In this document: positions 35,699 through 44,955 of the stretch, in pieces | Numbering within the stretch: position 1 is the first letter of the stretch | How the letters are laid out: every line of letters starts with the position of its first letter | Assembly: GCF_054482525.1 (NCBI RefSeq) | Contig: NZ_CM137006.1 | Length of the DNA: 64,000 bases | Reading direction: 5' to 3' (one strand) | Made by a program: the position numbers and the translations under genes | Notes under the pieces: model-generated | What the model was told of the DNA's origin: nothing | Database searches by the model: none | What the model saw: only the letters and a program-made list of their open reading frames with translations

Positions 35699-35733
35699 TA
35701 CTCCCCCCCAGTACCTGATACTACCCCCCAGTA
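35699..35733. promoter_or_regulatory. two RcnR operator sites of the TACT-G6-N-AGTA type in the rcnA-rcnR intergenic region
   Basis: TACTCCCCCCCAGTA (35699-35713) and TACTACCCCCCAGTA (35719-35733). They match the published RcnR operator consensus read on the complementary strand. Confidence 0.8.
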
Positions 35734-35781
35734 GATTAATAGTGCTATGATTTTTCATGTTCTTGTTAACCAGGTGTTGCC

Positions 35782-36054
35782 ATGTCTCATACCATCCGTG
35801 ATAAACAGAAACTGAAAGCGCGTGCCAGTAAGATTCAGGGCCAGGTCGTGGCGCTCAAGAAAATGCTCGACGAGCCGCACGAATGCGCTGCAGTTTTACA
35901 ACAGATTGCTGCTATCCGTGGCGCGGTAAACGGTCTGATGCGGGAAGTGATTAAAGGTCATCTGACGGAACACATCGTTCACCAGGGGGATGAGCTAAAA
36001 CGTGAAGAAGATCTGGATGTCGTTCTGAAGGTGCTGGATTCTTATATCAAATAA
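35782..36054 (+). CDS. rcnR: CsoR/RcnR-family Ni/Co-responsive repressor
   Basis: 90 aa ([22 protein letters not shown]..), matching K-12 RcnR. Confidence 0.94.
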
Positions 36055-36091
36055 TTTATTAACGCTATTGTAAAACTGCCGTTTTTCCTCG

Positions 36092-36120
36092 TTTACAACG
36101 GGTGCGCTGGACATTACCAT
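36092..36120 (+). promoter_or_regulatory. putative native thiM promoter, now separated from thiMD and pointing into the island integrase
   Basis: TTTACA-17 bp-TACCAT lies immediately upstream of the left copy of the riboswitch sequence. This is a prediction by eye. Confidence 0.45.
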
Positions 36121-36142
36121 CCTCCTCTGCGATTTATCATCG

Positions 36143-36224
36143 CAACCAAACGACTCGGGGTGCCCTTCTGCGTGAAGGCTGAGAAATACCCGTATCACCT
36201 GATCTGGATAATGCCAGCGTAGGG
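36143..36224 (+). repeat. attL: 82-bp direct repeat, a 5' portion of the TPP (thi-box) aptamer that lacks the 3' strand of the closing helix and the expression platform
   Basis: Identical base for base to 44033-44114. It contains CTGAGA and the other thi-box core sequences. It diverges from the thiM leader after ..GCGTAGGG. Confidence 0.9.
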
Positions 36225-36307
36225 GGCCAAAATAGTCTTGAAAATTATGTGGTTGTATCTCTTTTTGACCATAAATCATGCTGTTAAGGTACAAAAAGGG
36301 GTCGTTT

Positions 36308-37615
36308 ATGAGGTCAAGAACTCTCCCATACACATTTCAGCGAAACGGTAATTACTATCTACAAATCCGGCTTTCGGATGGTCGGATATACAAAAAATCA
36401 CTTTTTACTGACAGTTATCGCGAAGCATCGGCGTTGATGATTGGCCTTACTCCGCACATTCCTTTCGTTAAATCACTCGCTACTCCGTTGCCGCAATTTA
36501 ATAAGTTTGTTTCAAACTTGATCGCTTCGTCACGTAACGTAATGATTCCGTTGCCACTCCCTCAGCAATTGAACAATATTTCTAAAGAAGTTTTGCAGCT
36601 TCAACCACCAGCCAAACCGGAAAAGGTACTAACACTTGCTGATGCGTGGGCTATGTACAAGGAGGAAAGAGGTCGAAATTGGACAAAATCGATCTCAATA
36701 GCAAATGAGCGTTATATGGAGGTATTGCTTGTTGTCTTGGGAAAAGAAACAGACGTAACGGCAATCACCAAACAAGATATTAAGCGAGTAATGGAAACTG
36801 TCGAAAACTTACCAAAGCGTGTAGTGCAACCGTATAGGTCAATGACTATTCAGCAACTAATCGAATGTGATGATGTGCTGCCAGAGGATTTAGTTGGTGC
36901 TGAGGCTGTACATAAGCACCTTAAAATCTACAAATCGTTATTCAAAACATTTCTGACTGAAAACAAAGATATTCTATCTAAGTCTCCGACTGATGGAATA
37001 GTAGCGGCACCATCCAAAGCTAGGTTTGGTGCATACAGTGCAGCAGAAATGAAAAAATTTGTAGGATGGGCACTAAAGCAGCCTGATGGATGGCAGAAGT
37101 GGATCACTTTGTTGTTGGCGTACACAGGAGCCAGAAGAGGTGAGATTGCTAAACTGGAGAAGTCGCAGATCAAATTTGATGAAGATAGCCAGCGGCACTA
37201 TCTTCTGATCGCGGAAAGAAGGCTGGGTAAAACTGAGAATGCTACAAGACAGGTAGTGATTCATCCCAAACTGATTGAGTGGGGGTTTCTGGATTTTGTT
37301 AACCGCCAATGGAAAGAGAAAATCTTTTCGGAAGTCTCAGGTCGAAATATGTCAAAGATAGGTAAAGTTCTTTCAGATGTTCGTGATCAGCTTGATATTC
37401 CTTATCTTGATGATTATGGGCAGCGGCGCTTGGTGCATAGTTTCCGGCATACTATGATTTCTACTTGTTTAGCTGGTTGGGTGAGTAATTTGGCGCATCT
37501 GCAACAGGTGGTAGGTCATGAAAAGAGTGGAGTAGGGATTACCCAGCGTTATCTGCACACATTCCCACTTTCCACCGTTTGTTATGTGATCGATGGTCTT
37601 TGTTGGGAGACTTAG
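36308..37615 (+). CDS. tyrosine recombinase / integrase
   Basis: The ORF in the track starts at 36278. I prefer the ATG at 36308, after an AAAGGGG Shine-Dalgarno. N-terminal arm-binding-like RNGNYYLQIRL, then catalytic-domain motifs ARRGEI, HSFRHT and GHEKSGVGITQRYLH (Tyr). Confidence 0.88.
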   Translation: MRSRTLPYTFQRNGNYYLQIRLSDGRIYKKSLFTDSYREASALMIGLTPHIPFVKSLATPLPQFNKFVSNLIASSRNVMIPLPLPQQLNNISKEVLQLQPPAKPEKVLTLADAWAMYKEERGRNWTKSISIANERYMEVLLVVLGKETDVTAITKQDIKRVMETVENLPKRVVQPYRSMTIQQLIECDDVLPEDLVGAEAVHKHLKIYKSLFKTFLTENKDILSKSPTDGIVAAPSKARFGAYSAAEMKKFVGWALKQPDGWQKWITLLLAYTGARRGEIAKLEKSQIKFDEDSQRHYLLIAERRLGKTENATRQVVIHPKLIEWGFLDFVNRQWKEKIFSEVSGRNMSKIGKVLSDVRDQLDIPYLDDYGQRRLVHSFRHTMISTCLAGWVSNLAHLQQVVGHEKSGVGITQRYLHTFPLSTVCYVIDGLCWET

Positions 37616-37743
37616 TTATTCGTGTATCCTTCTTAGTGTATAACCAGCTAATAATTTGTAGATTTTTATTGTCTGAGATCAAAAATTTTCACAACTAATT
37701 TACAATAATAACTTAAGATGAATTTAGGCTTAGTGAGTCTTCT

Positions 37744-38469
37744 ATGGTTAAAAATTTAGGCAAAAAATACAAGTATGGCGATCAACCGATAAGAGCTATT
37801 ACCATACAGATAATTGCTAATCAGTTTGGTGGGGCTGCAACGGCTAAGCAGGTAGATGATTATCTTAGAAAGCTATTTCCATCTTATAAAGATAATACTT
37901 GGCTCAATTTAATTGCTAATACAGTTAATTGTAAGCGGAGCTACTGGAGTTTCAACAAAACTGCCCGACGAACTGATGATGTAACTCATCGGCATCATAA
38001 GTATGACCGATTGTTCAAGCGTGGAAATATTTTTGAAATCTATCAACCATCTGTGCACGGTATTTGGGAATTATACCAGGATTTAGAAGGGATGTGGCGT
38101 TATCGTCAAGTAAAATCGGTTTTCGAAGAAGCTGTTGAGACGGCTGCAAAATTATCTTCAGTGGAACGAAAGCAAATTTTAGCGACAGAAAGTAAAATCC
38201 CGGAACTAATCGAAGTAACAACACGAGTTTATAAACGAAGCCCATATGTAGTTGCTGAAGTTCTTTTGAGAGCAAATGGAAAATGTCAATATTGTAAGCG
38301 AGATGCTCCTTTTCTAAAGGAAGATGGTACTCCATTTCTAGAAGTTCATCATATTGAGTGGCTTTCAAAGGGGGGGGAGGACTCTGTGGAAAATGCTATT
38401 GCATTATGTCCTAATTGCCATAGACAAGCCCATTATGGCGATCTGACATTACTACCTGTTAATAAATAG
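37744..38469 (+). CDS. HNH nuclease-domain protein with an uncharacterised 170-aa N-terminal domain (McrA-like architecture)
   Basis: C-terminal CQYCKRDAPF..EVHHIEWLSKGGEDSVENAIALCPNCHRQAH is a canonical HNH/zinc-ribbon motif. No adjacent methyltransferase gene. Confidence 0.8.
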   Translation: MVKNLGKKYKYGDQPIRAITIQIIANQFGGAATAKQVDDYLRKLFPSYKDNTWLNLIANTVNCKRSYWSFNKTARRTDDVTHRHHKYDRLFKRGNIFEIYQPSVHGIWELYQDLEGMWRYRQVKSVFEEAVETAAKLSSVERKQILATESKIPELIEVTTRVYKRSPYVVAEVLLRANGKCQYCKRDAPFLKEDGTPFLEVHHIEWLSKGGEDSVENAIALCPNCHRQAHYGDLTLLPVNK

Positions 38470-38546
38470 GCTTGATGAAAGTTCTATTTCTATATTTTTC
38501 AATATACAAATTTCCCCAAAAACGGCGTGAATATCACGCCGATCAA

Positions 38547-38894
38547 TCATACTTCAGAACACATACTCAATGTGTAAACAGCCATCTCCCCATCGGGATT
38601 AGAAGGGCGTAATACAAATATCGGTATACTGCCATTGTCAATGTATGTGGCTGCAACCCCTCCGTCAGGTGTAGCATACATCTTTGCGATGCTTTTTTGA
38701 CCTACAAAATCAAGTCTCCAAGTTTTACCGCCAAGATTTATGGTCATTTTTTTATCTTGTATATCAAAAGTTGAATCTACAGAAACTTTCTGACTTCCCG
38801 AGTCAATATGACCTTCCTGTATTGCTTTACAGGAAAAGGTTGTGGCGTGGCCCATCACTGGAATTAACAAAGCGGCAAATACTAGTTTTTTCAT
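38547..38894 (-). CDS. small secreted protein of unknown function
   Basis: I prefer the start at MKKLVFAALLIPVMGHA (signal peptide), after an AAGGGAGA Shine-Dalgarno. 115 aa with two Cys. The ORF-track start at 38951 is rejected. Confidence 0.7.
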   Translation of the reverse strand: MKKLVFAALLIPVMGHATTFSCKAIQEGHIDSGSQKVSVDSTFDIQDKKMTINLGGKTWRLDFVGQKSIAKMYATPDGGVAATYIDNGSIPIFVLRPSNPDGEMAVYTLSMCSEV

Positions 38895-39004
38895 TTGTCT
38901 CCCTTGGTGTGTCAAATGGATGGTGATGCTAATAATACATGATTGATTCAAAATGTCACGATTAGTGCGTGGTTAATTGGTGCGTCAAATTGCATCTTTG
39001 TGCC

Positions 39005-39469
39005 ATGCGAAAGAATCTGAGATACCTTTTTGGACAACGAGTAAAAGAGTTCCGTATAGCTATTGGCTTAAGCCAAGAGGCCTTTGCAGATCGGTGTGGT
39101 TTTGCACGTAGTTATATGAGTCGAATTGAGCGTGGTTGCTCTAATGCATCTCTTGATGCAATTGAGGTTCTGGCTGACGCTTTGCGTATTGAGCCTTGGC
39201 AGTTACTGGCTTCTGATTCAAGGAAACCTGATGATCAGGAGGTACTTGTTCCTTATGCTGCAGATGGGTCGTGTTTTCATCCAGGATTGGCAAGTACTCG
39301 CGATGGTTCGTTTAGAGTAGGGGAAAAATCAGCCCAGAAACGTTTCAGTTCGTTCAATGAAGCTCTCGAATACCTTCGTGGAATGGAAACCGCGAAGTGG
39401 CGTAGGCCTAATGCTAGTGGTAATTGGGGAATTGTATCTGCGGTTAAATGGGATCGACTGAATCAATAA
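39005..39469 (+). CDS. XRE-family HTH protein fused to an uncharacterised C-terminal domain
   Basis: HTH region LSQEAFADRCGFARSYMSRIERGCSNASLDAIEVLADAL. The 90-aa C-terminal part (..ETAKWRRPNASGNWGIVSAVKWD..) is not recognisable to me. Start chosen at MRKNLRYLFG. Confidence 0.75.
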   Translation: MRKNLRYLFGQRVKEFRIAIGLSQEAFADRCGFARSYMSRIERGCSNASLDAIEVLADALRIEPWQLLASDSRKPDDQEVLVPYAADGSCFHPGLASTRDGSFRVGEKSAQKRFSSFNEALEYLRGMETAKWRRPNASGNWGIVSAVKWDRLNQ

Positions 39470-39635
39470 GATATCAGTAATTTTCGGGCCACTCCACAAG
39501 GCAATAAGTGGCTTAGTGGTGATTATCGAAGGGGAATACAAGCGAGCACCTAGGCACCATTGCAAGAACCGCTCAACGCTGAGATCAGCAAGCCCCGATT
39601 TTTGCCGACCGTCCCTGTCAAATATCAAGGAGGCA

Positions 39636-40187
39636 TTACGCCACCTGCTCTTTCTTGATACGTTGCACCGTCTGCGTGCTGACACTGAAATCTTTTGCTA
39701 CGCTCCGAATTGAGCCACCATTCGCGAGAGCGGCAGCAATTCCCGCTCGATCAATTGCTTTTCCATTACCACGTTTTGCTATACGTCCAGCGGCCTTGGC
39801 TGCGGCGATCCCTTCACGTTGACGCTCAAGCATCATTTCACGTTCCATTTGTGCCACTGCTGCAAGAACTGTGAGCATCATATTCCCTGCGGGAGAGTTC
39901 TTTCCTGTCTTAAAGTCTTCTTTATGGAAATGCACAGACACGCCGCGCTTTGTTAATTGCTCTACAGTTGCCAGAAGGTCGGCTGTATTACGACAAAGGC
40001 GATCAATACTATGGACGTGTAACACGTCACCCTCCCGCACATAGTTCATCATTGCCTCAAACTGTGGGCGCTGAGTGTTCTTGCCTGACGCTTTATCTTC
40101 AAAGACTTTATCAAGAGTTACTCCTGCTAATTGACGGTCTGTGTTTTGTTGCACAGTCGATACCCTAATGTATCCAATATTAGCCAT
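39636..40187 (-). CDS. serine recombinase (resolvase/invertase family)
   Basis: MANIGYIRVSTVQQNTDRQ contains the catalytic Ser. Also VHSIDRLCRN and a C-terminal HTH (SIRSVAKDFSVSTQTVQRI). 183 aa. Confidence 0.9.
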   Translation of the reverse strand: MANIGYIRVSTVQQNTDRQLAGVTLDKVFEDKASGKNTQRPQFEAMMNYVREGDVLHVHSIDRLCRNTADLLATVEQLTKRGVSVHFHKEDFKTGKNSPAGNMMLTVLAAVAQMEREMMLERQREGIAAAKAAGRIAKRGNGKAIDRAGIAAALANGGSIRSVAKDFSVSTQTVQRIKKEQVA

Positions 40188-40214
40188 CTTCTTTTTTCTT
40201 CTGTATTGATTTGT

Positions 40215-40318
40215 GTGTAGTGATTATTGAACGTGTTGATTAGGTGTGTAAAGTACTTTTTTCACTACGAAATTCGAAGTTTTTTAGTGTGGTGATTTAG
40301 CCTGCCTTATCACTACAC
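40215..40318. promoter_or_regulatory. res-like site upstream of the serine recombinase gene
   Basis: Perfect 10-bp inverted repeat GTGTAGTGAT (40215-40224) / ATCACTACAC (40309-40318), with inner related half-sites TCACTAC (40262-40268) and TAGTGTGGTGA (40285-40295). Confidence 0.5.
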
Positions 40319-40572
40319 TTCTTGCATGAGAATCATGTAGTTACATTTTGGTAAAATTAGCAAGCTATTAAATTGTGTGTTTATTTTGAAAAAATAATTT
40401 TTGTTGCATTAAAGAAAACTTGTTCGACAAATAATAGGTTGATTTTTGATCAATAATTTCTGATAGTGCTCTGTAAGCCGCATTACACAAGGCGCAGCGA
40501 AAGTGATGTAAAAGTGAAGAAAGCTAACATTGCACTTTTAAACTACTTTTCATTGAATTTTTTAGTATGGAA

Positions 40573-40643
40573 TTACACAGGAATAAGTTAGGGATATTCT
40601 ATGATTTACACAGGGAATATAGGGGGATTATGGTATTACACAG
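40573..40643 (+). repeat. three direct repeats of about 20 bp with core TTACACAG, spaced 33 and 30 bp
   Basis: TATGGAATTACACAGGAATA, TATGATTTACACAGGGAATA and TATGGTATTACACAGAGTGA. Cores are at 40573, 40606 and 40636. Confidence 0.7.
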
Positions 40644-40673
40644 AGTGAGTGCTATGTGATGATTGGTAGTAAC

Positions 40674-40782
40674 GGTAGGTCACTGTGAACTAGGGGGGTA
40701 GGTCACTGTGAACTAGGGGGGTAGGTCACTGTGAGCTAGGGGGTAGGTCACTGTGAACTAGGGGGTAGGTCACTGTGAACTA
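40674..40782 (+). repeat. five contiguous iterons (GGTAGGTCACTGTGAACTAGGGG, period 23/23/22/22 bp): putative vegetative origin
   Basis: Read directly from the sequence. Copy 3 carries one A-to-G change. The array is immediately followed by an AT-rich tract. Confidence 0.85.
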
Positions 40783-40877
40783 CAATAAGACTATAATAAG
40801 ACTATTAATAAAACTATATTAGATTATTAATTAGATCATAATAATAATATTCTTTATATCTATATATATATGATCTT
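40783..40877. other. AT-rich tract next to the iterons (candidate DNA-unwinding element)
   Basis: Almost pure A/T, with internal AATAAGACTAT x2 and a TATATATATAT run. Confidence 0.5.
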
Positions 40878-41883
40878 TTGCCTTCCGGCGTTAGCTTCAC
40901 TCTCTGGCAAGCAGCCTTACTCCGCTACCTTTCGGGCTACGTTGGCTGGCCCGTTCCGCTCACACCGAAAGCAAAGCGTTACTTTCTTCGTGTAACTTCG
41001 TTGGCGGTAACGCCCACGAAGGAATACTATTGCGCTGTGCGCAGTAAGAGTAATCACCTAACCAATCATCTGATTGCTTACGTGTTAACTCTCTCTAACT
41101 CTTAATTACCCTCCTACATTTAATAACTCTCGTTATTCTCTGTAGTTGTGTAATTACTCGAAGAGAGAGCGGCTAAAGCTCAATTACACTCTGCTTTCCT
41201 CGTGTAATTTCACTAAGCCTCAATACAATTTCACTTCCTACATTCTGTAGTCGTGTAATTGTTTTCGGTGGAAAAGCCAGAGGCGACACCGAAAGAGAAT
41301 TCTGATCTTATTAATCTTATCTATCTTAGTTATCTTACTTACTTTATCTACTTTATTATTAATAATAGCTTTATAAGCTCTCTGTGTAGCTCTCTGACGC
41401 AAGAAACAGAGTTCAGGAAGGGAATCACCTTAGAAAAGTGTTCTTTGCGTCATAATGTGTTTTATGAAGGATTCAGAGGTGTTTCATAACAGAGATGTAT
41501 AGAGGATACTTTAGGTAATTAAAAATAAGGGGTCTAAATGCTTCTCTAACAGCATTAAGCAGGGTAGAGAATGGAAACCGCTTTGCCTACATATATAAAC
41601 TCACTACAGGGCTTTACAGAGCGTTTTATAAAGTGACTCTCTGTTTTATATCTACCATCACCTTTTCATATACCTAACAAATACAAAATAAGCCCCTTAA
41701 ATAAGCCTCTGGCGAGCTAAACAGCCATTACATAAGAGAATGTATTGCTTTTATCAAAACCTCGTTAGAACGCGTTTTAGAGCGTTTTAGCGGATAATGA
41801 AGAATAGCACTACACAGGAGAGCACGAATTGCTAAGAAAAAATGTAACTACATGAAAAAGATCAGATTTTTTGTGAAAAGGTA

Positions 41884-41912
41884 TTGACAAACGTCTCTTT
41901 CTGTGCAATAAT
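41884..41912 (+). promoter_or_regulatory. predicted sigma70 promoter upstream of the rep-like operon
   Basis: TTGACA (41884-41889), 17 bp, then AATAAT (41907-41912). Confidence 0.5.
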
Positions 41913-41965
41913 AGGTATTAGAGGGACAGGAATAGATTCTTATCCTCTAAATAATTAAACCAATG

Positions 41966-42010
41966 CACCGCACTTTGAAGCCCAAGGCTTGTAAGGTGTG
42001 TTTTTTCTTT
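41966..42010 (+). terminator. intrinsic-terminator-like hairpin between the promoter and the first ORF (attenuator, or the 3' end of a roughly 90-nt sRNA)
   Basis: Long imperfect stem 41966-41982/41986-42000 around a CAA loop, followed by TTTTTTCTTTT. It lies 29 bp upstream of the ATG at 42039. Confidence 0.55.
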
Positions 42011-42038
42011 TAACCAAATAGAATAAGGAGGCTAATTA

Positions 42039-42227
42039 ATGAAATATTTTACTCCACAGGATGTAGTAGAAGCCTGGAAACGTGGTGAGATCAACCGCTT
42101 TAAAGTAAGGATGTATAGAAACACCGCTCGCCGTTGTGGTTATCCAGAGCGTGAAAAATGTTTTGACGATGCACTAAAAATTATTGATGAACTGCGTAAA
42201 GCTGAGAAAGAAGCAGAGAAAAAATAA
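42039..42227 (+). CDS. 62-aa basic/acidic small protein, unknown function
   Basis: Strong AAGGAGG Shine-Dalgarno 8 nt upstream. It is the first ORF of a tightly packed 4-gene cluster. Confidence 0.65.
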   Translation: MKYFTPQDVVEAWKRGEINRFKVRMYRNTARRCGYPEREKCFDDALKIIDELRKAEKEAEKK

Positions 42228-42249
42228 TAGACAAGAGAAGGAGAAAACT

Positions 42250-42417
42250 ATGAGCGAAACTAAGAAACCAATTCCGCGCACTTACCTACACGTTGACCCT
42301 GAAATCTTCAAGGTTTTATTTGCTGAAGCCAAGAAAAGGCAAATTATGGTCAGTGATTTGATGTTAGAAATCATTACTGAAGCAGCAGAGAACATCAAAC
42401 AAAAAAAGGGTAAGTGA
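42250..42417 (+). CDS. 55-aa ribbon-helix-helix (CopG/Arc-like) protein candidate
   Basis: Start at MSETKKPIPRTYLHV after AAGGAGAA. The beta-strand, helix, helix pattern (RTYLHVDPEIFKVLFAEAKKRQIMVSDLMLEII) fits an RHH fold. The ORF-track start at 42184 is rejected. Confidence 0.6.
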   Translation: MSETKKPIPRTYLHVDPEIFKVLFAEAKKRQIMVSDLMLEIITEAAENIKQKKGK

Positions 42418-42468
42418 TCCTCATTCACTTTAGTAGCGCATTAAGCGTGATTTATAAGGAGATTTTTA

Positions 42469-43158
42469 ATGATTAATCAACTAACTTTTACAAAACACTA
42501 TGACACGTTTGATAATGTATCAAAGATTTATTCTGATAAATTCCCTCAAGGAAAAGATTTAGATCTATTACATATTGTGCTTTATTTTCGATTCCTTAGT
42601 TATCAGGAAAACAACCTTAATTGTTATGAAAGTCACGAAACATTAGCTAAGATTTTTAAGTCTTCAGCGTCAACAATTAAACGTAAGATAAACGATCTTA
42701 AAGAGATGGGATTATTAGAAACATCCCCACATCCTGATCCGTATATTTCATCTTTGATTTACAATGCTCTCCCTCTCACAGATGCACATATTACTCCCCC
42801 AGGAGAATCATCACTCTCTGATCTTTCTGAGGCAGAAGAAGCACAGGAACAACCTAAAGGCCATAAACAGCCTTCTTTTGATGTTCTTGATGATTGGGAT
42901 ACGCCTTTACCCTGGGAGACGGAAGAAACACCTGTTTCATCAAGTGAAAAAGTAGCTAATGATAATGAGGAGGATGTGTTAGAGAATTTTGCCTCTCTTA
43001 TCATCCAGGAGAAACACACAAGAACAGGAGGAGCATCATTTATTGAGTTTGCAAATTCACTAGCTTGTAGATACGGGCTAAAACGACCAAATGGTATTGA
43101 GGCATATTTTTCTAAGAATTACCCAAATATATACGATGACTTTGATATTCCATTTTAA
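42469..43158 (+). CDS. putative replication initiator (winged-helix N-terminal domain, acidic C-terminal half)
   Basis: HETLAKIFKSSASTIKRKINDLKEMGLLE is an HTH/wHTH like those in DnaD/Rep-type initiators. AAGGAG Shine-Dalgarno. It is encoded near the iteron array. The function is inferred. Confidence 0.55.
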   Translation: MINQLTFTKHYDTFDNVSKIYSDKFPQGKDLDLLHIVLYFRFLSYQENNLNCYESHETLAKIFKSSASTIKRKINDLKEMGLLETSPHPDPYISSLIYNALPLTDAHITPPGESSLSDLSEAEEAQEQPKGHKQPSFDVLDDWDTPLPWETEETPVSSSEKVANDNEEDVLENFASLIIQEKHTRTGGASFIEFANSLACRYGLKRPNGIEAYFSKNYPNIYDDFDIPF

Positions 43159-43169
43159 TAAGGAGGGTT

Positions 43170-43415
43170 ATGATTCAATATTTAGTAAAAAATCAAGTAG
43201 ACAGAATTCAGTGTAATGACACAGGAAAACGCATCTACGAGACACTTGTTTACCTCTATAAAGGAAAGCCAACACCGCTAAAATATAGCGATGTGTTACA
43301 TCGAGCAGGTTGCTCTGAGTCAGGTTTAAAATTCTGGCTGAAACAGCTATCAAATTTCGGTGTTATTGAAATGAAAGAGCTGTCTTTTTCTACATTCAAC
43401 CTCAAGAAGTTATAG
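43170..43415 (+). CDS. 81-aa winged-helix-like small DNA-binding protein candidate
   Basis: AAGGAGGG Shine-Dalgarno. The YSDVLHRAGCSESGLKFWLKQLSNFGVIE segment looks like a wHTH. Confidence 0.55.
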   Translation: MIQYLVKNQVDRIQCNDTGKRIYETLVYLYKGKPTPLKYSDVLHRAGCSESGLKFWLKQLSNFGVIEMKELSFSTFNLKKL

Positions 43416-43483
43416 AAAATAGAATTCATCTATTCCACGCTCTAATTCTATTTCTCTGTTTAATATAAAAGGAAAACATTATT

Positions 43484-43561
43484 ATGGTAATAGCTATGTG
43501 GTGGTTGTTGTTTTTTATGCTCGTAGAAACATATGCAAGTAAGTCTGGAAAACAAAAATAA
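43484..43561 (+). CDS. candidate 25-aa hydrophobic peptide (MVIAMWWLLFFMLVETYASKSGKQK)
   Basis: Hand-translated. AAGGA lies 10 nt upstream. It has a hydrophobic N-terminal part and a basic tail, like type I toxins or small membrane peptides. There is no other support. Confidence 0.25.
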   Translation: MVIAMWWLLFFMLVETYASKSGKQK

Positions 43562-43580
43562 TATATTGATGATTTGTTTT

Positions 43581-43820
43581 TTATAACTTCGTGGTGTCAA
43601 GTCCAGCAGCTTTGAGTCGCTCGGTAAGATTTCTCATTTTGCTGAACTCTGTACCAAAGCTGGCTTTAAGTCCTACACCTTCACAAAACTCTTTTGCCGT
43701 AACCTTTTTCAGATGGTCAGCATATTTGATCATCTGGAGGTGCATTTCCATCGTTTGGCTATTTCGTGGTGCGCTGCTAATGGCTTGCTTAATGTTCTCG
43801 TAGATCTGGGTTTCTGTCAT
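43581..43820 (-). CDS. 79-aa protein of unknown function at the right end of the island
   Basis: Clean ORF, MTETQIYENIKQAISSAPRNSQ... It is the last gene before attR. Confidence 0.6.
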   Translation of the reverse strand: MTETQIYENIKQAISSAPRNSQTMEMHLQMIKYADHLKKVTAKEFCEGVGLKASFGTEFSKMRNLTERLKAAGLDTTKL

Positions 43821-44032
43821 TTTTTATCTCACCTATCAAATTTAGATAAATAATATAAATTAGCAAATTAAGATAATCAATAGTTTTTATCATCTGAATG
43901 ATAGATGTTAAATGTTTCTTTTTCATTTCTGATATGGGGTACAAAATGGGGTACACAGAGAAGAAGCAATTAATGGAGGCGAGCTTGCATCTGCAAGCCA
44001 CTTCCCCTAAGCTGGCACAAAATATAGAGATT

Positions 44033-44166
44033 CAACCAAACGACTCGGGGTGCCCTTCTGCGTGAAGGCTGAGAAATACCCGTATCACCTGATCTGGATA
44101 ATGCCAGCGTAGGGAAGTCACGGACCACCAGGTCATTGCTTCTTCACGTTATGGCAGGAGCAAACT
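44033..44166 (+). promoter_or_regulatory. complete TPP (thi-box) riboswitch of thiM; its first 82 nt form the attR repeat
   Basis: CGACTCGGGGTGCCCTTCTGCGTGAAGGCTGAGAAATACCCGTATCACCTGATCTGGATAATGCCAGCGTAGGGAAGTC matches the well-studied E. coli thiM aptamer. It is followed by the native expression platform and a GGAG Shine-Dalgarno. Confidence 0.92.
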
Positions 44167-44955
44167 ATGCAAGTCGACCTGCTGAGTTCCGCGCAATCTG
44201 CGCACGCGTTACACCTTTTTCACCAACATTCCCCTCTTGTGCACTGCATGACCAACGATGTGGTGCAAACCTTTACTGCCAATACCTTGCTGGCGCTCGG
44301 TGCATCGCCAGCGATGGTTATCGAAACCGAAGAGGCCAGTCAGTTTGCGGCTATCGCCAGTGCGTTGCTGATTAACGTTGGCACGCTGACGCAGCCACGC
44401 GCACAGGCGATGCGTGCCGCCGTTGAACAGGCAAAACGCTCTCAAACACCCTGGATGCTTGATCCAGTAGCGGTGGGTGCACTCGATTATCGCCGCCGTT
44501 TTTGTCTGGAACTTCTGTCTCATAAGCCAACCGCCATACGTGGTAATGCTTCGGAAATCATGGCATTAGCTGGCGTTGCTAATGGTGGACGGGGAGTGGA
44601 TACCACTGACGCCGCAGCTAACGCGATACCCGCTGCACAAACACTGGCACGGGAAACTGGCGCAATCGTCGTGGTCACTGGCGAGATGGATTATGTTACC
44701 GATGGACATCGTATCATTGGTATTCACGGTGGCGATCCGTTAATGACCAAAGTGGTAGGAACTGGCTGTGCATTATCGGCGGTTGTCGCTGCCTGTTGTG
44801 CGTTACCAGGCGATATGCTGGAAAATGTCGCATCTGCCTGTCACTGGATGAAACAAGCCGGAGAACGCGCAGTCGCCAGAAGCGAGGGGCCAGGCAGTTT
44901 TGTTCCACATTTCCTTGATGCGCTCTGGCAATTGACGCAGGAGGTGCAGGCATGA
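44167..44955 (+). CDS. thiM: hydroxyethylthiazole kinase
   Basis: 262 aa ([32 protein letters not shown]..), matching K-12 ThiM. The stop overlaps the thiD start. Confidence 0.95.

Follow-up and report, generated by a model that had tools for sequence, protein, structure and literature searches.

The gene at 37744..38469 (+) of a 64,000-nucleotide stretch of contig NZ_CM137006.1 (RefSeq assembly GCF_054482525.1), hereafter the window, encodes a solitary 241-amino-acid (aa) endonuclease in which a winged-helix domain, assigned by profile comparison to the DUF7669 family, is joined to an McrA-type HNH nuclease. Carried by a small integrative island, the gene probably specifies an McrA-like, methyltransferase-less, single-polypeptide modification-dependent restriction enzyme in which another reader takes the place of the McrA one. 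Solitary type IV enzymes of the reader-HNH design, encoded on mobile elements, are familiar; here the reader domain is an uncharacterised one.

The open reading frame (ORF) is complete and intact, with an ATG start, and its product is identical to WP_000240373.1, a RefSeq coding sequence of Escherichia coli SCU-102 annotated as 'HNH endonuclease'. The SCU-102 chromosome is a 100% match to window positions 35700-44300, and 100% identical copies of the protein are found on 352 public contigs. An earlier sequence-only reading had described a 241-aa protein with a C-terminal HNH motif at this place, and the ORF proved exact, with Pfam HNH (PF01844) matching aa 181-230 (E 1.2e-12). When the whole protein was used as query against Pfam, NCBIfam and PADLOC, matches were confined to this HNH part.

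An McrA-type nuclease joined to a DUF7669 winged helix

The HNH beta-beta-alpha-metal core spans aa 166-233 (38239..38442, +), as defined by PF01844 and by invariant residues. It comprises a zinc site formed by C181, C184, C222 and C225 and an active site consisting of H202, H203, N217, H226 and H230. The best sequence match in the PDB, found with phmmer, was EcoKMcrA (6GHC; E 5.5e-23, aa 141-232 against 6GHC residues 176-268), followed by ScoMcrA (5ZMM; E 1.6e-8), also within its McrA-type HNH domain. The PADLOC type IV profile PDLC03656 was matched with an E value of 1.3e-23, covering only positions 175-258 of its 277. After correction of the 6GHC numbering for the 10-residue tag of the chain, H202, H203, H226 and H230 align to EcoKMcrA H228, H229, H252 and H256, the alanine variants of which are all inactive. 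The catalytic histidines, N217 and both CxxC pairs show little or no variation among 29 family members, and none among 72 McrA-type proteins of other species.

The homology extends beyond the core. In EcoKMcrA the HNH domain comprises residues 147-276, and the nuclease domains mediate dimerisation; in the 241-aa protein nuclease homology begins at aa 141 by sequence and at about aa 121-126 by the published McrA boundary (residue 147). The region between reader and core (aa 126-165; 38119..38238, +) was delimited from the phmmer match, the structural model and this boundary as a helical linker together with the N-terminal part of the nuclease domain; the model places helices at 126-135 and 139-148 and has a predicted local distance difference test score (pLDDT) below 50 at 154-162. 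Homology to McrA was thus found in both sequence and fold, including the helices that precede the core, and the C-terminal half of the protein is a close homologue of the McrA nuclease domain with its active site intact. The N-terminal domain had been put at 170 aa in the sequence-only reading, a figure which is too long because it includes about 45 residues of nuclease-domain helices; only about aa 13-125 constitute a separate domain.

This N-terminal domain (37780..38118, +) is invisible to routine annotation. Searches with aa 1-125 alone gave no match in Pfam, in NCBIfam or among PDB sequences, and the hidden Markov model of DUF7669 (PF24706) gave none at E <= 1 with the whole protein or at E <= 0.01 with aa 1-136; the precomputed Pfam annotation of the Enterobacterales family lists PF01844 only. 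A phmmer search with aa 1-146 against 1.84 billion representative proteins returned 59 relatives at E <= 1e-3, and phmmer matches across the whole library reached DUF7669-carrying proteins at E values of 1e-6 to 1e-4. When domain segments were cut from the relatives, 38 of 51 matched PF24706, the best at 1e-19. Because profile-profile comparison (hhalign) of the Enterobacterales family with 12 DUF7669-annotated proteins gave a probability of 98.7% and an E value of 2.4e-16 over aa 13-125, we assign the domain, on this profile evidence, to DUF7669 as a divergent member that current annotation has overlooked. The description of the domain as unfamiliar consequently needs amending, the family being already in Pfam, while it stands in so far as the family is one for which no structure or paper was found; a literature search on DUF7669 and WP_000240373 returned nothing.

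Further searches added little. A second homologue search with the N-domain profile mostly recovered the same Enterobacterales family, the profile of the 51 segments found no credible PDB sequence (best 2K3D, E 0.44), and a fold search of the domain against the viral predicted structures of BFVD gave no match at E <= 1e-3. Against 50,697 phage records, tblastn gave HNH-domain matches only and no full-length relative.

The structure of the domain was predicted with AlphaFold from the 51-sequence alignment (pLDDT 92.3, predicted template modelling score 0.81). Of the folds proposed for such a check, namely SRA, EVE/PUA and winged helix, the model has the last, and a Forkhead match at aa 19-77 in the whole-protein domain search, weak in itself (E 0.12), fits it. 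The modelled elements are helix H1 (16-27), strand b1 (31-33), helices H2 (34-44) and H3 (52-58), an insertion of about 30 residues, the wing hairpin (90-93 and 96-99) and an extra second hairpin at 107-123 with strands 107-112 and 118-123. The insertion, located between the recognition helix and the wing (about aa 59-89 in the model; aa 61-89 are encoded at 37924..38010, +), has no counterpart in the matched winged-helix structures, as judged by aligned lengths, and the conserved residues of the family are concentrated in and around it. Across the 51 segments N62, D88 and G106 are invariant, and V61, R65, R75, L90, Y100, H105 and W108 are at least 90% conserved; V61, N62, R65, R75 and D88 lie inside the insertion.

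A candidate modification reader

It is a hallmark of type IV enzymes that one recognition module is swapped among several nuclease or nucleoside triphosphatase effectors, and DUF7669 was found as such a separate module on other type IV effectors. The partners identified among 49 relatives of the N-domain were HNH_2 (23), HNH (8), a NucS_C-like PD-(D/E)XK nuclease (2) and the McrB-type AAA_5 domain (2). Some relatives carry two tandem DUF7669 copies, and others an additional DUF3427-like domain, which is the recognition domain of the 5-methylcytosine (5mC)- and 5-hydroxymethylcytosine (5hmC)-dependent enzyme SauUSI. In the DUF7669-McrB fusion P0177, DUF7669 takes the place of the methylcytosine-binding domain of E. 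coli McrB; a McrC gene (PF10117) follows immediately 3', and then a helicase and methyltransferase cluster. A metagenome contig (SRR14875207_4417; L009, 554-8869) carries genes for DUF7669-McrB, McrC, a helix-turn-helix (HTH) protein, an SNF2-type helicase, DUF4391 and an N6/N4 methyltransferase, a gene content by which we classify it as a compound defence locus, in which a type IV module is combined with one based on modification. Since the domain is swapped among HNH, HNH_2 and NucS-like nucleases and McrB, we read it by association as probably the target reader.

The known system nearest to the 241-aa protein is EcoKMcrA, the 5mC/5hmC-dependent type IV endonuclease of the E. coli K-12 e14 prophage, with the specificity Y5mCGR. 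Both have the same nuclease domain and a reader-plus-HNH design, but the EcoKMcrA reader, NEco, is a six-stranded antiparallel sheet to which the DUF7669 winged helix is unrelated. McrA matches were C-terminal only; as the 5mC/5hmC-binding NEco domain is absent, the protein is not an McrA orthologue, and the McrA specificity is not transferable to it.

A second group, the endonucleases that sense Dam N6-methyladenine (6mA), also combines a winged helix with an HNH nuclease, in proteins of similar size (224-283 aa) with an McrA-like metal preference, and these are likewise encoded by stand-alone genes rarely found near methyltransferases (PMC11037411). The characterised members are toxic in Dam+ E. 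coli, and Dam+ genomes are avoided (PMC11037411). The DUF7669-HNH gene is resident in many Enterobacterales, and a survey of 5426 complete E. coli genomes found it in 99, 68 of them with this allele and 31 with a 76%-identical one. Enterobacterales are generally Dam+ and largely Dcm+. Because the gene is stable in hosts expected to carry those marks, Dam methylation of GATC (G6mATC) and Dcm methylation of CCWGG (C5mCWGG) are unlikely targets, which would set the family apart from the characterised winged-helix-HNH enzymes.

The phosphorothioate-dependent SBD-HNH endonucleases EcoWI, SprMcrA and ScoMcrA share the McrA-type HNH nuclease, the reader-plus-HNH design and an occurrence in E. coli; their sulfur-binding domain is an eight-helix fold, whereas the 241-aa protein has a winged helix with hairpins. 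No sulfur-binding domain was recognised in it, as NCBIfam NF045808 scored 27.8 bits against a cut-off of 180, over the HNH part only. The SRA-HNH enzymes TagI and ScoA3IV and the EVE-HNH enzyme VcaM4I are also among the closest known systems.

The gene is moreover not a singular oddity. The 72 nearest McrA-type HNH proteins, taken from diverse phyla with one genome per species (L014-L093), are 146-484 aa long, and their N-domains are without Pfam annotation in 72 of 72 cases, so that the E. coli gene is one of many reader-HNH combinations. Additional matches in the set were limited to one NUDIX domain and one weak DUF7097 match overlapping the HNH region. All on the same nuclease module, these N-domains are a large stock of candidate readers still to be classified.

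The sequence-only reading had put the gene forward as a candidate McrA-like type IV restriction enzyme or anti-phage effector. The McrA nuclease, a winged helix, type IV partners of the reader and the lack of a cognate protective methyltransferase were all found, while modification dependence and anti-phage activity are inferred from them. In the mechanism that we propose, the winged helix (aa 13-125) would bind DNA and recognise a foreign feature, most likely a modified base or backbone that the host chromosome does not have. By analogy with EcoKMcrA, two protomers would dimerise through their nuclease domains (aa ~126-241), each winged helix would bind a marked site, and the HNH pair would make its cut close by, with Mn2+ or Mg2+ as the metal. 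The small integrative island carries the gene as variable cargo, and the enzyme would guard host and island against modified phage or plasmid DNA. Candidate targets include 5hmC or glucosyl-5hmC, cytosine or adenine methylation in other contexts, 7-deazaguanines and phosphorothioate.

The thiM riboswitch island, its neighbours and its relatives

The island integrates within the thiamine pyrophosphate (TPP) riboswitch of thiM. It is bracketed by two perfect 82-bp direct repeats spaced 7890 bp apart, giving a 7.9-kb element. The left repeat (36143..36224, +), the attL core, is the 5' part of the riboswitch aptamer, and the right repeat (44033..44114, +), the attR core, restores the riboswitch before thiM together with the native 3' part. 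Rfam RF00059 scored above its gathering score at both ends, with 61.3 bits at 36146-36241 and 71.2 bits at 44036-44132. The GC content is 0.33-0.45 inside the element, compared with about 0.50-0.55 in the rcnA/rcnR and thiM/thiD flanks. The perfect repeats and the drop in GC bear out the proposal that the gene is island cargo. A tRNA search at the element found none, and our literature search on a thiM or TPP-riboswitch attachment site, or on a defence hotspot there, gave nothing relevant.

The tyrosine integrase gene (36278..37615, +; PF00589 and annotation) lies 128 bp before the HNH gene and is read in the same direction. Besides these two, the element carries a small ORF convergent with the HNH gene, genes for an XRE-family HTH protein and a serine recombinase, and several genes for small HTH proteins. 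Pfam matches of the other island proteins were restricted to the tyrosine integrase, XRE-HTH, the serine recombinase, HTH_36 and HTH_73. No methyltransferase was found in the island by Pfam or in its RefSeq annotation, in agreement with the earlier reading. PADLOC, which had been suggested for the whole island, returned its McrA-type profile on the HNH part, and otherwise only generic XRE or 'control protein' matches and a weak CasR-like HTH match. Comparison of the island backbone with plasmids produced partial, uninformative matches only.

Several smaller features of the element were recorded. The left copy, in which the sequence diverges directly after the repeat, lies 53 nt ahead of the start codon of the integrase, and transcription from the thiM promoter through its leader may therefore continue into that gene. 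On the plus strand upstream of the HNH gene a promoter scan found no convincing sigma-70 site. Downstream, between the HNH gene and the convergent minus-strand ORF, there is a GC-rich, terminator-like hairpin with a T-run (38523..38541, -). The XRE-family protein (166 aa, 38969-39469), encoded 500 bp downstream of the HNH gene, matches PADLOC 'control protein' profiles of restriction-modification systems at aa 15-81 (E 6.6e-17), its C-terminal ~85 aa being without annotation; it could regulate island genes, the nuclease included. Five tandem iterons of 22-23 bp (GGGGGTAGGTCACTGTGAACTA) occupy 40671-40787. They lie between the serine recombinase gene and the small HTH genes, where 1.8 kb contain no long ORF, and resemble an array serving the island as a replication origin or as binding sites for a regulator.

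In E. coli EC96 (L002, NZ_CP060748.1) the 76% allele lies in a related island, which has inserted into this riboswitch site too. This island also holds an AIPR-family abortive infection gene (L002 14214-15236) as well as IS1 and IS3 insertions, which suggests that the thiM-riboswitch island family gathers defence cargo. In Lelliottia an 84% allele is arranged as riboswitch, integrase, HNH gene and second riboswitch copy, and an 81%-identical integrase adjoins the HNH alleles in both E. coli EC96 and Lelliottia. Elsewhere the setting differs: the gene is at the rim of a prophage-like region by sodB in Klebsiella pneumoniae, a solitary insertion amid housekeeping genes in Serratia rubidaea, and located between cmoAB and aspS in Pantoea, and full-length homologues also occur in Dryocola, Cedecea and Enterobacter loci with no integrase or riboswitch nearby. 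The neighbours are wholly different among the E. coli, K. pneumoniae, S. rubidaea and Pantoea contexts. In Klebsiella, Serratia and Pantoea no methyltransferase was found next to the gene. Nor did a conserved partner emerge, the convergent 134-aa ORF of E. coli, the 143-aa neighbour in Serratia and the 136-aa upstream ORF in Pantoea being mutually unrelated. Judged by these neighbourhoods, the gene is a single-gene system without a conserved partner.

These contexts bear on what the nuclease might do other than restrict modified DNA. An unlikely alternative is a modification-independent defence or abortive-infection nuclease, in which the winged helix reads a sequence, a structure or a protein-DNA complex of phage DNA, or in which a silent enzyme is released on infection. 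Winged-helix domains are mostly plain readers of sequence or shape, EcoKMcrA itself is not strictly methyl-dependent in vitro, an abortive-infection gene sits in the related EC96 island, and the XRE regulator would permit tight control. An unregulated nuclease without a protective methylase would nevertheless be lethal. An immunity or antitoxin partner is not conserved beside the gene in the four genera, and the XRE gene is absent from the other contexts examined. The reader is also found on McrB in an McrBC operon, a class defined by recognition of modified DNA.

Less probable still is a selfish or maintenance role, in which the nuclease would target the attachment site of the element itself, an empty site or rival elements and so aid retention or spread of the island. 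The adjacency and shared orientation of integrase and HNH gene would suit such a role, as would the recurrence of their pairing at the TPP riboswitch with the EC96 and Lelliottia alleles. Against it stand the full-length homologues that have neither integrase nor riboswitch nearby (S. rubidaea, Pantoea, Dryocola, Cedecea, Enterobacter), and the island can do without the HNH gene, since frameshifted copies persist in otherwise intact islands.

The G8 tract, selection and the meaning of the reader

The frameshifts arise at a run of eight G residues (G8; 38370..38377, +) that falls in codons K209-G210-G211-E212, after the HH of the HNH motif and before its N. Its length differs among genomes: G8 is kept in 60 of the 68 genomes with this allele, and the remaining 8 show an indel within the surrounding 71 nt. 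Three variant copies were aligned, carrying G7 (strain B7A), G9 and G6, all of them frameshifting; the other indel genomes were judged by match length. One of the genomes with this allele has an IS1 insertion. In each of the other alleles that were checked, the G tract is broken by other bases. The variation could reflect phase variation or inactivation through genome conflict, and it could equally be long-read homopolymer error. Strain B7A, a single case, carries a dnd phosphorothioation cluster (PMC10602919). Its frameshift, together with the HR and Y.P residues of the N-domain, had prompted us to consider the latter as a sulfur-binding domain, an idea that was rejected as that domain is all-helical and NF045808 misses the N-domain.

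The gene was compared with six other alleles. Amino-acid identity was 69-83% in the N-domain and 82-97% in the HNH core. The ratio of nonsynonymous to synonymous substitution rates (dN/dS) was ~0.06-0.10 in the N-domain and 0.01-0.035 in the HNH core, the lowest of the protein, these values being approximate with dS near saturation. By this measure the gene is under purifying selection. Many E. coli, Enterobacter and Klebsiella relatives (P0183-P0189, P0095, P0106, P0112 and P0119) are 'partial' proteins of 188-222 aa without a Pfam HNH match, and such sequences suggest that members of this family often lose their catalytic end. That the gene is a decaying or non-catalytic remnant, either a DNA-binding protein with an irrelevant nuclease or a gene nearing loss, is the least probable explanation, for although the frameshifts, the IS1 insertion and the many C-terminally truncated relatives speak for it, the window copy is full length, its catalytic and zinc residues are those kept invariant in the 29 family members and the 72 McrA-type proteins, and the HNH core is the most constrained part of the protein.

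A modification-dependent restriction enzyme thus remains our preferred explanation, and it admits a bolder version, which we advance tentatively and consider rather unlikely. Here DUF7669 would be a new class of modification reader shuffled among HNH, HNH_2, PD-(D/E)XK and McrBC effectors, with slippage at G8 toggling the E. coli enzyme and the B7A frameshift representing genome-conflict avoidance. The winged helix with its conserved VN..R / RRTD / D.LF / Y.P..HG.W insertion would then recognise a mark outside those read by SRA, EVE/PUA, NEco, ADAM, SBD and DpnI-type winged-helix domains, for example a hypermodified phage base or phosphorothioate.

The known readers (SRA, EVE, NEco, SBD and the DpnI-type winged helix) each became both a tool for mapping modifications and a window on the arms races between phages and their hosts. 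DUF7669 bears the signature of a reader, with at least four effector types including McrBC, and is one for which no structure, literature or ligand was found. The E. coli DUF7669-HNH protein is small, encoded by a single gene and easily testable. If it proves modification-dependent, the specificity of the whole domain family would be defined and a new mapping enzyme may be gained; if it does not, McrA-type nucleases would be seen to be deployed with plain DNA binders as well.
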